Shown here piece after piece: positions 112 to 35,539 of a stretch of 64,000 bases of DNA. How positions within the stretch are numbered: the first letter of the stretch is position 1; every line of letters starts with the position of its first letter. Origin of the DNA: Bdellovibrionota bacterium (lineage in GTDB: Bacteria > Bdellovibrionota_C > UBA2361 > CAKMMH01); NCBI GenBank assembly GCA_050952645.1, contig JBMNLI010000012.1, positions 32,001 to 96,000 of the forward strand, read 5' to 3'. The position numbers and the translations under genes were made by a program. A model generated the notes under the pieces. It was not told the DNA's origin. It made no database searches and worked only from the letters and a program-made list of their open reading frames with translations.

Positions 112-3100
112 GTGATTTTGTTTAATATGCATTTCTTAAAAATTTTAAAATCTAATAATAAATCTAATAGCAAATTTAATAATAAAGCTTTAAAGATGAG
201 TAGAAATTCAAAAGGAGAGGTCCTTGTAAGTTTCGTGCTTGCTGCAATAGTTTTTATTGCTATTGCGTTTGGTATTATGGAGATGGGCATCTTTGCATAC
301 AAAGAGGTTGTAGCTAGCGATAAACTTAAAACGATCGTAAGAAAAGCTGAGTCGAGAAGCGAACTGTTTATAGACTTAAGTGCTAGTGAGCTTTTAAATA
401 TAAGAGATAGAACTTGGTATCCTTGCACTCCTGTATGCGATGATAAAGGGGTGGCTTCATGTGTAGAAGATTATAGGCTAGTATTGCCAGGAAGTCCCGT
501 TACTTGTAAAGAGGTATGTGATTTTTGGAAAACATCGTATGAGTTAGCAAAGTCTGAAGGAGATATGCGTGGCATACTTAATAATGATGTGCCAGATGTG
601 GTATACGATAAAAATGGGACTTGTAAAGCAAAGGTCGCTTTGGTGCTTCCAGGGTTTGAAAGCAAATCTATAAACCCAGATGACCCTAGTGCAGTAAAAG
701 AGTTTAAGGCTATTAATACGACTCATACCGTGTTAAGACTATTACAAGGCAAAGGGAGTATAATAGCAAAAACGAATGTAATAAAAACGAAAGGCTTATT
801 TTCTTTTTATAGCGATGGAGTATTTAAACATGAAACGTTTCACGTTGGAAAGCCTAGAATGGCGATAGTAATAGATGATGATGTTCCACCGCTAAGTCCG
901 TCTAGTTCTAGTAGTTCAAAGAGTTCGCCTAGTAGCTCGTCAACGATTAGTCCTTCTTCTAGCTCTAGTAAGAGTAGTTCTTCTAGTAGCAGGTCTAGTA
1001 GTAAGAGTAGTTCATCATCTAGTAGTTTATTAAGTTCTAGTTCTTCTAGTAGCTTATCGTCTAGTAGTTTATCGCTAAGTAGCAGTAGCAGTTTATCTAG
1101 TAGCAAAAGTTCTTTATCGTCTAGTATCTCATTGCTAAGTAGCAGTAGCAGTTTATCATCGCTAAGCTCGTCAAGCTCTTCGTCTAGTTTAAGTAGCTCT
1201 TCTAGTTCGAGTTTAAGTAATGGCAGTTCATTATCTAGTTTAAAGAGTTCGCCTAGTAGCTCGTCAACGATTAGTCCTTCTTTTAGCTCTAGTAAGAGTA
1301 GTTCTTCTAGTAGCAGGTCTAGTAGTAGGAGTAGTTCATTATCTAGTAGTTTATTAAGCTCTAGTTCTTCTAGTAGCTCATCGTCTAGTAGTTTATCGTT
1401 AAGTAGCTTATCGCTAAGTAGCAGTAGCAGTTTATCATCGCTAAGCTCGTCAAGCTCTTCGTCTAGTTTAAGTAGCTCTTCTAGTTCGAGTTTAAGTAAT
1501 GGTAGTTCATTATCTAGTTTAAAGAGTTCGCCTAGCTCTAGTAAGAGTAGTTCATCGTCTAGTAGCTTATCGCTAAGTAGCAGTAGTAGTTTAGCTAGTA
1601 GCAAAAGTAGTTCTAGTAAGAGTAGCTCTTTTAGTAGTTTATCATCTAGTCTAAGTATCTCTTCTAACGGTAGCTCGTTATCTAGTAAGTCATCTAGTAA
1701 ATCTTTAGCTTCTAGTAGTTTTTCTTTGTCTTCAAAAGATGTTGATTTAAGTTGGTCTTCTGAATTTAGTAGAATTTCATCATCTAATAGAAGCAGTGAA
1801 ACTTCTAATAGTTTTAGTGTAAGCGAAAGTTTTGATTCTTATAGTTTTAGTGATAATAGTTTTAGCGATAATAGTTTTAGTGATGCTAGTTCTAGTTATA
1901 GCAATGATGGAAGTTTTAGTAGTTTATCATCGAATGGTGGGGGCTGTAAGTGTCCTAGTGGTTATGTATGTTTAGATGATATAGAAGGGGACGATAATCC
2001 TAGTGGCGTAGGCAATAGATGTTGCAATAAAGAAGATGGCACGCCAGGGACTGGCTGTTGTAAAGAAGATAATTATTTTATAGGAGATAATGGCGAGCAA
2101 CTATGTTGCGAAGATGGAGAAACTCCAAAATACGTTATAGATGTAAACGGCAACTCGGTTTTTGTATGTAATGCTAGATGCCCAGATGGAAGCGTAGAAA
2201 ATGAAACGGGTAGAGTTATAGTAAGTGATGAAAAAAGTTATAATGAAAAAATTTGTTGCCCAGCAGATATTCCAGACTTTAAGGGATTTGGATATTTTAC
2301 TGGCGTTCCAGTATGTTGCAAAGAAGAGGAGATTTTTTGTCGTAGTGCATGTTGCAAAAAAGATGAATTTTGTGCTGATATAGCAGGCACTTTAAGGGCT
2401 TTTCACGATAACAAAAATGGCTCGCTAGAGCCTTTACCTGCTCAAACGTGTTGTAAAAAAGAGGGGCAAGTTTTTTGTGGTGGCACGTGCTGTGAGGCTG
2501 ATAAGTGCATAGCTCCGCTAGGGACGATTAGACCTAATCAGCGAATTAGCGAATATGTGTGCTGCCTTGGTAGTATTATAACGCATGAAAGCGGTGTGTT
2601 AGAATGCTGTGATACAACGGAAGATAAAAATGTAGTAATAGGTGATATATGTTGCAAAGCTGAGCTCGTATACACGGAAGATAATGAGCAAAAATGTTGC
2701 GATGGAGATTTACAAGAGGTTGAAATAGGAGGCGTTAATGCTAACACTAGCGACAAAAGTGTTTCTGTTGCTTCTTTTAGTTCTACTGCTTCTAAAATAA
2801 AAGAAAGTGGCGATAAGGGAGCTTATAGCATCGATTCTAACACTAGCAGTGTTAGTTTAGATGATAACAAATCTACTATTAAAGTATGTTGTCCTATGGG
2901 GCAGACTGCGTTCGTTGATACTTATGGCAATCCTAGATGTTGCGATGGAACTGCTTATAGAAATCTAAGCGGCAACATGGAATGTTGCCAAACGAATGAA
3001 AGAAAATCATCAACTAATTATTTAAAAAAATATAGTCTAGTAGAAAGAGTAGACGCTACGGGACACACGCAATACGCTTGCTGCCCTAATATGGTTAATA

Positions 3101-8348: not shown

Positions 8349-8579
8349 AAATAAGAAATAGGAGATAAAAAAAAGGGAGTAGTTTTAAAAGACGAATTTC
8401 TTTTACAACTACCCCCTACTTGCAAAAAGGATGGTATATGCCTAACAAATAACACTATCGAACGAAAAATAGTTTTCATTATATTTTGTATCTTTTTTTT
8501 CTTGCCTATTGTATTTTTTAAGATAACTTGTTATATTTAAAAGAATATTTTTTCAATTAAATATTTTTCAATTAATTGA

Positions 8580-33126: not shown

Positions 33127-33876
33127 ATGAGTAAGAAAGCAAAAAATGGATATTTATTACTAGATATTTTACTTAAAAAAAATCTTGCAGATTCTCGTTT
33201 AAAAGCTAAGGCGTTGATAAGTGCCTCAAAGGTTTATGTAAATGGAGAAGTGGTAAACGATGTTTCGGCCGTGTTTGATAGTGATGATTTAGATATTCAA
33301 ATTTTTCAAAAATTATTCGTAAGCCGAGCTGGCTATAAATTAAAAAAAGCGTTAGATGAGTTTAAGATAGATTTAAAAGGCAAGGTATGCATAGATGCTG
33401 GCTCTTCTACGGGTGGATTTACAGATTGTATGCTTTTGTATGGTGCTAGTAAAGTTTATGCGGTAGATAGCGCCTATAATGAGCTAGCTTGGAAGCTAAG
33501 AAGTGATAAAAGAGTAGTAGTAAAAGAAAGAACTAGGATTTCCGATTTAGTAATAGATGAAAAAGTCGATTTTATATCCGTTGATTTATCGTTAATTTCT
33601 ATTAAAAAAGTTTTGCTCGATATTAAGAAACATCTTAAAAAAGATGCTCAAATGGTTATCTTAATAAAGCCACAATATGAAATTGAAAAAGACAAACTAC
33701 CTAGCGGTGGAGTTATAAAAGATAGTGATACGCATTTTAAAATTTTAAATGATCTAATAGATTATTTTAAAGCAAATGGTCTTATAGTTTTAGGTAAAGT
33801 AGTTTCCCCAATAAAGGGAGCGCTTGGTAATACTGAATTTTTAGTCCACGTAGAAAATAATATTCTTGCAAAATAA
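33127..33876 (+). CDS. tlyA: TlyA rRNA methyltransferase
   Basis: S4 domain, FVSRAGYKL, DAGSSTGGFTD, LIKPQYE, SPIKG..GNTEFL. Confidence 0.93.
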   Translation: MSKKAKNGYLLLDILLKKNLADSRLKAKALISASKVYVNGEVVNDVSAVFDSDDLDIQIFQKLFVSRAGYKLKKALDEFKIDLKGKVCIDAGSSTGGFTDCMLLYGASKVYAVDSAYNELAWKLRSDKRVVVKERTRISDLVIDEKVDFISVDLSLISIKKVLLDIKKHLKKDAQMVILIKPQYEIEKDKLPSGGVIKDSDTHFKILNDLIDYFKANGLIVLGKVVSPIKGALGNTEFLVHVENNILAK

Positions 33877-34004
33877 ATACAAGAATAAATTCTTTTTAAT
33901 AAAAAATATTTTTTCAATTCTTTCTTATAATATTTCTTATAATATTCCTTATAATATCTTGAAAAATAATAGTTTTTTTTATTGAAAATTTTTAATAAAA
34001 CTAT

Positions 34005-34031
34005 TAAGTTTTTTTTCGTATTTATCGATAC
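34005..34031 (+). promoter_or_regulatory. Putative sigma28 promoter
   Basis: TAAG-N15-ATCGATAC; predicted start ~34038 matches the 5' end of the closing helix. Confidence 0.5.
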
Positions 34032-34037
34032 ATAATT

Positions 34038-34480
34038 TACAGGGTGGATGTTAGGTTATGTTTAGAACGGTTAGTAAGTTTAGGTGAGTGTAATCCTAGA
34101 AAAAGCTTATAGTTCTAAAATGTCAGAGTGTTAATACATTCTATTGTTTGGTTATGGGTACTCTAAACAAGACTCGTAGCGAATAGAAAAAAAGTTTAAT
34201 GCTTTGAAGCCTTGCGATTTATTTATGCAGCGGTTAAGGAGCATTTACTTGGTGTGGTAAGTGTCCATGCTTTTAGTAGAGTTTCTTTTACGTTATATAA
34301 AGATATTATATAAAGATATTATATAAAGATAATGTCGGCAAGGTCGTGGCTTAAAATATAAAAATATTTTTTTTAGGTTTTTAAAAAGGTTAAAATCTTT
34401 TTTTAAATTTAGAGTAACATTCATGTTATTTAAATGTGTAATAACGAAAGTTATATGCGTTTTTAACATAAAATCCTGTA
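34038..34480 (+). ncRNA. Candidate large structured non-coding RNA
   Basis: Ends pair (tacagggt/atcctgta; atgttagg/tttaacat); several internal helices with G-U pairs; GAAA tetraloop hairpin at 34432-34462; no ORF of 60 aa or more. Confidence 0.65.
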
Positions 34481-34490
34481 TTTGCGAGTG

Positions 34491-34550
34491 GGGGCAGCAG
34501 GCTATTTTTTAAAAAGAAAAATACTTGTTGCCCTTTTTTTATTTATCTCC
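34491..34550 (+). terminator. Intrinsic terminator
   Basis: ggggcagcagg...cttgttgccc + T7. Confidence 0.75.
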
Positions 34551-34852
34551 ATTTCCAAATAAGCTATGTAAAGCTTTATGCAAAAAATCAAAACAACTTT
34601 AAGGTAGATAATCTTAAAATTCCTTAAGTATCTCTCTTTACTTTTACTAAAAGAAAATGTAAAAATTAAGGTTAAGTTTTTAAAAAAATATCAAAATATT
34701 TTTGTTAAAGTTTGGATTTATTGCAAAGATAGTGTATACTAACTAAATGCGCTGAGCGTAAGTTTGTATACATTTTTTATGTGTATGTTTATTTAGGCAT
34801 CATACATACATACATACATACATATATTTATTTTTATTGGAGTAATTTTAAA

Positions 34853-35539
34853 GTGTCTGATTTTGTTATACAATTAAAAGATAGATCTCAGTTTGGTTCT
34901 TCAAATGCTAATCGTTATAGGAGAGAAGATTTAATACCAGTTTGTGTTTCTTTTAAAGGTGAAGAAAGTGCTTTAGCAGTGGTTGCTTATAATGAGTTTT
35001 TTCATATGGCAGAGAGAGCAAAGACTTCTCAAGTTTTTACTTTTAAGAGTGATAATAAGAGATTAAATGGCGTTAAAGCGATAGTTAAAAATATACAAAA
35101 AGAATATTTAAAAGATAAAGTTCTTCACGTCGATTTTCAAGCTTTAAAGCCAGGGGAGCACGTTACGGTAAAAGTTCCTTTACAAATCGTTGGAGTAGCA
35201 CAAGGAGTAAAAGTCCAAGGTGGAATTTTAACCCCAGGGGCTAGAGAGGTAAAGCTACGTGTTTTAGATGAAGCTATCCCAGAAATTTTAGATGTTGATG
35301 TAAGCGCTCTTCGTATAGGCGAGACTATATTAGCAAGCGATCTTAAGCTACCAGAAGGGGCAACGCTACTTAGTAGCCCAAGAGAGGCATTAGCAGGCGT
35401 AATCGAAAGCCGTGCTAGTAGACTTGCTGAAATAGCAGCTTCAACGGCTGCTAAGGGGCAGAAAGCTACGACAAAGGATAAAGCGGCAACTGCACCAGCA
35501 GCAGCAGCAACTAAGCCTGCAACGAAGAAAGATAAATAA
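34853..35539 (+). CDS. rplY: 50S ribosomal protein L25/CTC
   Basis: GTG after GGAG; LHVDFQ, VKVPL..VG...GVK.QGG, IPE.L.VDVS.L.IG. Confidence 0.92.
   Translation: MSDFVIQLKDRSQFGSSNANRYRREDLIPVCVSFKGEESALAVVAYNEFFHMAERAKTSQVFTFKSDNKRLNGVKAIVKNIQKEYLKDKVLHVDFQALKPGEHVTVKVPLQIVGVAQGVKVQGGILTPGAREVKLRVLDEAIPEILDVDVSALRIGETILASDLKLPEGATLLSSPREALAGVIESRASRLAEIAASTAAKGQKATTKDKAATAPAAAATKPATKKDK

Follow-up and report, generated by a model that had tools for sequence, protein, structure and literature searches.

A large sigma28-type structured RNA in one family of Bdellovibrionota and its likely short paralog

A locus between tlyA and rplY in the window, the whole 64,000-nucleotide stretch of Bdellovibrionota DNA that we analysed, is very probably a real stand-alone RNA gene of the sigma28 type. 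Its product (the long RNA) appears undescribed and, as far as it was found, restricted to one family. On the simplest reading of the sequences it arose within that family by duplication and expansion of the gene for a short RNA. These would be two RNA families absent from Rfam, one a large folded RNA of a single bacterial family, the other an sRNA that stays near-invariant over the order. The origin of the large RNA would be traceable to the sRNA, which is rare for big bacterial non-coding RNAs. A literature search that reached few subscription papers described neither RNA among the matches listed. Below, G000 is the genome holding the window (1.95 Mb, ~31% GC), G001 belongs to the same genus, and G002 and G003 belong to the family's other genus. 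The sequencing run that contains all words sampled from this DNA is an anaerobic-digester metagenome and may be its source; among the 12 runs listed there was no RNA run, which is uninformative about expression.

A sigma28-type RNA gene between tlyA and rplY

The locus is laid out as follows.

33127..33876, + strand: tlyA-like gene (S4 plus FtsJ methyltransferase), flanking the long RNA, outside the unit
34004..34031, + strand: putative promoter of the sigma28 (FliA) type for the long RNA, assigned from its motif (-35 TTAAGTTT, -10 ATCGATAC)
34038..34540, + strand: long non-coding RNA, a 445-nt core plus terminator, ~503 nt, ends predicted
34853..35539, + strand: rplY (L25), flanking the long RNA, outside the unit

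An earlier note on this DNA had proposed a stand-alone, sigma28-driven, structured non-coding RNA new to Rfam, and our analysis supports that proposal. The elements that it listed are present in the sequence: TAAG (at 34005), N15 and ATCGATAC (at 34024-34031), followed by a helix that begins at 34038; a terminator, consisting of a hairpin at 34491-34534 and a U tract up to 34540; and an interval free of reading frames, with no ORF of 60 aa or more between the tlyA-like gene and rplY. The terminator was visible in the predicted fold and was missed by a simple terminator scanner. Short tandem expansions flank the long RNA at window positions 33921-33957 (12-nt x 3.1) and 34801-34824 (CATA x 6), and together with the expansion inside it described below they indicate that slippage is common here.

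FliA, flagellins, CsrA and FliW are all encoded in this genome. The same promoter form occurs upstream of two flagellins, fliD and motA in this genome and upstream of fliD in two relatives. A relaxed sigma28 pattern matched 183 sites in the genome, so the motif alone is weak evidence; 27 of these sites are intergenic, among them those before the two flagellins, fliD, motA and the long RNA. The motif is kept at equal distance before all four homologs of the long RNA. Flagellar genes of this genome have CCGATA as their -10 box; that of the long RNA is one base off, and in G002 and G003 it is CGAAA. With one mismatch, the promoter also fits the Bdellovibrio consensus TTAAG-N16-CCGATA given in PMC3627812. 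The long RNA shows what is expected of a sigma28-dependent non-coding RNA, namely a correctly spaced promoter motif, FliA encoded in the same genome and no conserved reading frame, and we infer that FliA transcribes the long RNA along with the late flagellar genes.

Folding of the long RNA

The predicted fold has the following parts.

34038..34069, + strand: conserved 5' strand with the 5' halves of P1-P4, a likeness to a ribosome-binding site plus AUG, and complementarity to the short-RNA seed
34038-34045 with 34473-34480, + strand: P1 closing helix, pair probability 0.96, covarying
34046-34053 with 34415-34422, + strand: P2, competing with pairing to 34464-34469
34053..34352, + strand: P3, enclosing the variable arms P4-P6; G001 favours a different topology
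34061-34119, + strand: P4 arm, variable, within P3
about 34123-34206, + strand: P5 arm, variable, within P3
34209-34344, + strand: P6 arm, variable, within P3
34293..34331, + strand: tandem expansion of a 13-nt unit in the P6 arm, 3.0 copies
34383..34403, + strand: P8 inner hairpin, conserved in G001
34423..34469, + strand: P9 hairpin with a GAAA loop, in the minimum-energy fold
34460..34540, + strand: 3' end homologous to the short RNA, with a degenerate seed, a UGCGAGU motif and an intrinsic terminator (stem 34491-34534)

Compared with shuffled sequences, the + strand folds with z = -7.6 including the terminator and -6.9 without it, against -2.0 for the - strand. The locus thus beats its shuffles, but so do many others: z <= -8 is attained by 5 of 46 random intergenic windows of this genome, and 72 of 828 intergenic windows outdo the long RNA once composition has been regressed out. 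Because strong folding is common among intergenic windows, the z-score alone proves little. The same observation is what might favour regarding the locus as non-functional structured DNA. We give that reading very little weight, since the promoter, the 5' end, the covariation of P1 and the terminator persist over two genera and three gene arrangements, and the folding is strand-specific, unlike that of the single control window with a high score for which both strands were sampled.

Only part of the internal architecture proposed in the earlier note stood. Mean pair probabilities were high for P1 (0.96), tttagaac/gttctaaa (0.95) and gccttgc/gcaaggt (0.88) and intermediate for atgtta/taacat (0.56), while ttctatt/aatagaa reached 0.29 and taagttt/aagctta (0.01), catttac/gtaagtg (0.0) and acgttat/ataatgt (0.0) were essentially not formed. 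The atgtta/taacat helix competes with a fold containing P2 and P9 (~0.35), which is the minimum-energy form and holds the GAAA-tetraloop hairpin that the note had pointed out. The 13-nt expansion that the note had seen is present as well, and it has no counterpart in the alignment of the three homologs. A strain variant in DNA contigs of four sequencing runs, which added few variants, changes A34416 to G and leaves a U-G pair in P2. Several interior helices, from the earlier note and from our own analysis, are unsupported.

A search of Rfam, with the c-di-GMP aptamers, ROOL, GOLLD and OLE included, found no family near cut-off for the long RNA. The models for tmRNA, RNase P and SRP RNA did not match it either, and each of these RNAs was located elsewhere in the genome, in keeping with the lack of their signatures remarked on earlier.

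Homologs move as a promoter-to-terminator cassette

Homologs of the long RNA were found in all four genomes of the family, answering the earlier call for homologs in related assemblies and for covariation.

G001, L009:1541-1941, + strand: promoter, 5' end and terminator matched by BLAST
G002, L260:931-1308, + strand: located via the short-RNA model
G003, L263:581-938, - strand: located via the short-RNA model

From G000 to G003 the cores measure 445, 350, 347 and 325 nt, with sense-strand z of -6.9, -3.3, -6.4 and -6.4 and antisense-strand z of -2.0, -1.2, -2.0 and -0.6. Aligned columns of the four cores are only 46-57% identical. All seven pairs of P1 are kept in the four genomes, with two-sided changes in three columns, and this covariation argues for a stand-alone RNA gene. 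The folds of G000, G002 and G003 are alike: within P1 lie P2 and a GAAA-type hairpin, and within P2 lies P3 with its three arms. A P9-type AAC-GAAA-GUU hairpin is also present in G002.

The interior is less certain. Because MAFFT alignments of the interiors were poor, eight helices of G000 and G001 were compared by hand-picked anchors, a procedure biased towards agreement, and gave 49 pairs that are identical, 9 changed on one side and 3 changed on both, while 11 of the 72 positions are unpaired in at least one of the two. The shared outline can be imposed on G001 only at a cost of 16.8 kcal/mol, which makes the interior homology of the long RNAs tentative.

The four genomes show three gene arrangements, one of them inverted. 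In G000 the order is tlyA>RNA>rplY>; in G001 the RNA is inverted relative to tlyA and rplY, with a 162-aa ORF between the RNA and rplY; and in G002 and G003 the long RNA lies between two genes that read, from their translations, as rne and prs. Movement and inversion as a cassette running from promoter to terminator argue for a trans-acting gene. They also bear on the reading of the locus as a cis-acting leader or attenuator of prs or rplY, or as a locked short-peptide mRNA like type I toxin messages. In three of the four genomes the RNA does precede rplY or prs on the same strand, and its 5' strand contains an AUG that 5'-3' pairing would hide, yet the inversion in G001, the lack of a visible anti-terminator competing with the terminator, and short 5' frames that differ between genomes in frame, length and sequence, and so are not conserved as in a toxin message, make this reading quite improbable. 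A 22-codon frame from +7 in G000 and G001 was considered and rejected: the two share only the region of its first seven codons, and it has no leader.

Flanking the inverted RNA in G001 are the 162-aa ORF (L009:855-1343), which has no Pfam match, and a long palindromic element (L009:2170-2282). Both are possible traces of rearrangement.

Wider searches for the long RNA yielded chance matches only, whether by a 12-mer in 91 genomes, by patterns in metagenomes (5 matches) and viruses (14 matches), by promoter plus 5' end, or by models R1 and R2. BLAST against G002 and G003 and synteny with tlyA and rplY did not find the long RNA. As these searches missed the true homologs of G002 and G003, absence from other families cannot follow from them. 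With the short-RNA model R3, no long 3' end turned up near tlyA in the loci of 15 relatives or beside the short RNA in 27 loci.

A short sRNA across the order resembles the 3' end of the long RNA

The short RNA lies 25.6 kb from the long RNA in the same window, next to tRNA-Cys.

8367..8449, - strand: short sRNA, ~72-75 nt, with a near-invariant CU-rich 5' seed and a covarying terminator
8455..8481, - strand: putative sigma28-type promoter of the short RNA, assigned from its motif

It was first met, as a unit of ~72 nt with an end like that of the long RNA, when 20 of the 86 sigma28-like sites of G002 and G003 were checked. Model R3, built from five copies, had matches at E <= 0.05 in 53 of the 91 genomes of the order, a count that takes in a few weak or partial matches among 54 candidates scored per genome and includes G003, where the best match is the end of the long RNA and no short RNA of its own was found. 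The core pattern of the short RNA was present in 25 of 27 loci examined, and in nearly all of these the 26-nt core was identical; YCGAW stood in a fixed upstream window in 21 of the 25. The terminator covaries strongly in two alignments, the second of them fitted to the model. Rfam gave no match to the short RNA. A variant of the seed characterizes family f1, and second copies of the gene occur in G016 (L266), where the seed is changed, and in G031 (L267).

The last ~80 nt of the long RNA match R3 with 28.9 bits (E 8e-6). The 3' ends of G000 to G003 score 28.9, 28.8, 35.0 and 33.7 bits, part of which reflects a generic terminator, against 17.1 bits for the best unrelated site in 76 kb. Exactly two sites of the genome, one in each RNA, carry the motif ATCCT-n-TTGCRAGT. 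UGCGAGU followed by the terminator is common to the short RNA and three of the four long RNAs; that of G001 lacks GCGAGU. These likenesses make the short RNA a likely paralog and the predicted partner of the long RNA.

The seed is CU-rich and contains CAU, and it therefore complements Shine-Dalgarno plus AUG regions; its best pairing falls over start codons and their surroundings. When 1516 start regions were scanned with the seed there was no flagellar enrichment; proteins that read as pgk and groEL rank near the top, as putative targets. Hfq was found in none of the four family genomes, a situation like that in Campylobacter. Even if the decoy reading set out below fails, the short RNA is a well-conserved candidate regulator.

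Given its likely descent from an apparent base-pairing sRNA, and a single-stranded stretch kept before the terminator, the long RNA could itself regulate mRNAs by pairing, or give rise to a 3' fragment with the activity of the short RNA. The stretch differs in G001, however, the remaining seed is degenerate and buried, and three segments of the long RNA compared with start regions of ORFs of at least 100 aa gave no coherent target set and no flagellar enrichment. We consider this alternative improbable.

The 5' strand of the long RNA complements the short-RNA seed

Sponges of sRNAs, or target mimics, are RNAs with a target-like site for an sRNA. The 5' strand of the long RNA is complementary to the short-RNA seed in all four genomes, and its first 32-nt window ranks 2 of 52, 1 of 41, 2 of 40 and 1 of 37 for seed pairing in G000 to G003. 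Of the shuffled seeds, 5 of 300 did as well as the summed energy of -66.5 kcal/mol, and of the shuffled 5' windows 0 of 300 did so. The test was chosen after the pairing had been seen and applied to four related genomes that amount to two genera and are not independent; since G003's own short RNA was not found, that of G002 was used for it. Taken per genome the same test is weak in G002 and G003, with 101 and 62 of 300 shuffles as good. Pooled over the four related genomes, the long RNA thus has the seed-complementary site of an sRNA sponge.

Duplexes of the whole long RNA with the short RNA were no better than shuffles (243 of 500 and 192 of 500 in G000; 117 of 300 in G002). The net cofolding gain was -1.1, -6.8, -2.0 and 0.0 kcal/mol in G000 to G003, clearly beyond shuffled seeds only in G001, and it is small because the seed-complementary site is buried in P1/P2; weak net binding is thus predicted in three of the four. 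The sponge function suggested in the earlier note is plausible, but the predicted partner is an RNA, the short paralog, where the note had thought of a ligand or a protein.

A possible locked decoy or protein scaffold

The reading we prefer, tentatively, is that the long RNA is an expanded paralog that acts as a self-locked decoy for the short RNA. The sigma28-type promoter would drive the ~500-nt transcript alongside the late flagellar genes, while the short RNA would pair over Shine-Dalgarno plus AUG regions and so repress translation. The 5' strand of the long RNA would mimic such a region and bind the seed. With the mimic site held shut in P1/P2, the decoy would need a window of access, and the short RNA would be captured only during transcription (the partner strand of P1 follows 320-440 nt behind the site), once the long RNA has been cleaved, or when it refolds, for instance through the two-state P2/P9 region seen in G000. 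The model starts from features observed directly, namely the promoter motif, the terminator, P1 covariation, cassette movement, 3' homology and 5'-strand complementarity.

If true, the decoy reading would mean that an sRNA gene has turned into its own inhibitor, and it would hint at a way in which relatives of predatory bacteria adjust motile-phase expression without Hfq. Two further points weigh against it. It would be unusual for a sponge to share its sigma factor with its target. In addition, since the 3' strand of P1 is the seed remnant, the complementarity to the seed could be a relic.

There is another reading that we hold to be somewhat less probable, though it stands close to the preferred one: the long RNA would be a compact protein-binding scaffold, or a motile-phase protein decoy, in which shape matters and the complementarity is left over from its origin. 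Nearly the whole long RNA is paired, the cores of G000, G002 and G003 share a nested topology at 46-57% identity, GNRA-capped hairpins recur in three of the four, and UGCGAGU plus the terminator, shared with the short RNA in the same number, is what a joint protein site would look like. G001 fits this poorly, given the 16.8 kcal/mol needed to bring it into the topology and its missing GCGAGU. CsrA and FliW are present, but the cores of G000 to G003 hold only 2, 5, 3 and 1 GGA triplets. With 1-5 GGA per core, and none in the predicted hairpin loops of G000, G002 and G003, the long RNA does not look like a CsrB/RsmZ-type sponge.

Comparison with known RNAs

In its working the pair most closely resembles, by analogy, the Campylobacter paralogs CjNC1/CjNC4, save that here one paralog is large and self-paired. 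In PMC4626219 and PMC11187230, CjNC1/CjNC4 (CJnc10 and CJnc170, the latter also FlmR) are stand-alone paralogous non-coding RNA genes with a CGAT-type -10 box, differing genomic positions, a conserved single-stranded 5' seed predicted over ribosome-binding sites and a variable terminator; they are Hfq-independent, and in PMC4626219 they repressed reporters without Hfq. The short RNA is built in the same way. Both Campylobacter paralogs are under 50 nt in these sources, whereas one paralog here is 370-500 nt, keeps what remains of its seed masked and has a strand that complements the seed of its sibling. Compared with the class of sRNA sponges in general, the proposed sponge is unusual in being a paralog of its sRNA and in hiding its site in its own helices; binding is predicted.

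UhpU, MotR, FliX and FlgO of E. coli are likewise sigma28-controlled non-coding regulators of the flagellar cascade; according to PMC10578931 they are UTR-derived and were studied with Hfq, whereas the long RNA has its own promoter and terminator in a family in whose four genomes Hfq was not found. OLE, ROOL and GOLLD are likewise several hundred nucleotides long and multibranched, with function largely open; the long RNA has a far narrower known distribution, little conservation of loop sequence and no match to their models or to any other in Rfam.

The earlier note had drawn a parallel with merRNA of Bdellovibrio bacteriovorus as a FliA-driven RNA, and this did not hold up. In PMC3627812, merRNA is intergenic, ~445 nt and equipped with its own terminator, as is the long RNA, and it comes from the same phylum, but it contains a c-di-GMP riboswitch, its entry in the FliA column of Table 2 is blank, and its printed sequence shows no likeness to the long RNA by eye. 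The note had seen no c-di-GMP-I aptamer in the long RNA; the Rfam search agrees, and RF01051 is found in none of the 41 genomes of the order searched. Shared phylum and size (445 nt for merRNA in PMC3627812) are thus what speaks for a merRNA-like sponge of a small molecule such as c-di-GMP; with no riboswitch match, few conserved loop bases and a merRNA that the source does not mark as FliA-driven, we rate this the least probable of the alternatives.

The lineage's missing 6S RNA, in highly expanded form, is scarcely a better candidate. RF00013 is found in none of the 41 genomes, so that 6S RNA in the order is either absent or too divergent for that model; this genome has long versions of RNase P RNA (502 nt) and tmRNA (431 nt), and the 5' and 3' ends of the long RNA pair. 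Against this, the fold is multibranched, with no rod and no central bubble on the 5' strand, the long RNA has no RF00013 match and is seen in one family only, and its 3' end is probably sRNA-derived. RNase Y, as a synteny anchor for 6S, was found in none of the four family genomes.

Other RNAs and loci in these genomes

A third candidate sRNA lies near rne, at G000:C10 about 202050-202115 (- strand), L260 about 690-745 (-) and L263 about 1235-1295 (+); in G002 and G003 this candidate and the long RNA are divergently oriented. A sigma54-like promoter precedes the hairpin of the candidate by about 70-80 nt. The hairpin loop pairs with the leaders of two of the five flagellin genes (L042, -22.6 kcal/mol; L046, -31.5 kcal/mol), with 0 of 200 shuffles as good for each. 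Pairing of the long RNA with this sRNA was no better than chance (109, 110 and 162 of 200 shuffles).

A speculative and rather unlikely extension of the decoy reading joins the three RNAs in an Hfq-free flagellar circuit, in which the sigma54-type sRNA would silence flagellin leaders, the sigma28 sRNA would block start regions, and the long RNA would be its sponge, with P1/P2 opening only during transcription or upon a signal. If it were true, an sRNA gene would have evolved into its own antagonist in an uncultured Bdellovibrionota family.

The flagellin leaders L042, L043 and L045 have AAGGA motifs before their start codons, some in small hairpins, and csrA and fliW are adjacent genes, which together suggests CsrA-FliW control of flagellin. 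At L125 (G000:C17 about 201900-202362, - strand) a sigma28-type promoter is followed by a leader like the 5' end of the long RNA (R1, E 1.4e-4) and a frame of ~107 codons that has no Pfam match and whose start is apparently out of frame. RNase P RNA (L016, 502 nt) and tmRNA (G000:C17:374943-375373, 431 nt) are unusually long, suggesting that the lineage tends to expand structural RNAs.

Other strongly folding intergenic windows were seen at G000:C11 44450-46060, C9 37091-37940, C12 187295-187745 and C17 395439-395890; some of these fold on both strands, like palindromic repeats. A ~36-nt unit repeated with unique spacers at G000:C16 about 27200-27330 is probably a CRISPR array.
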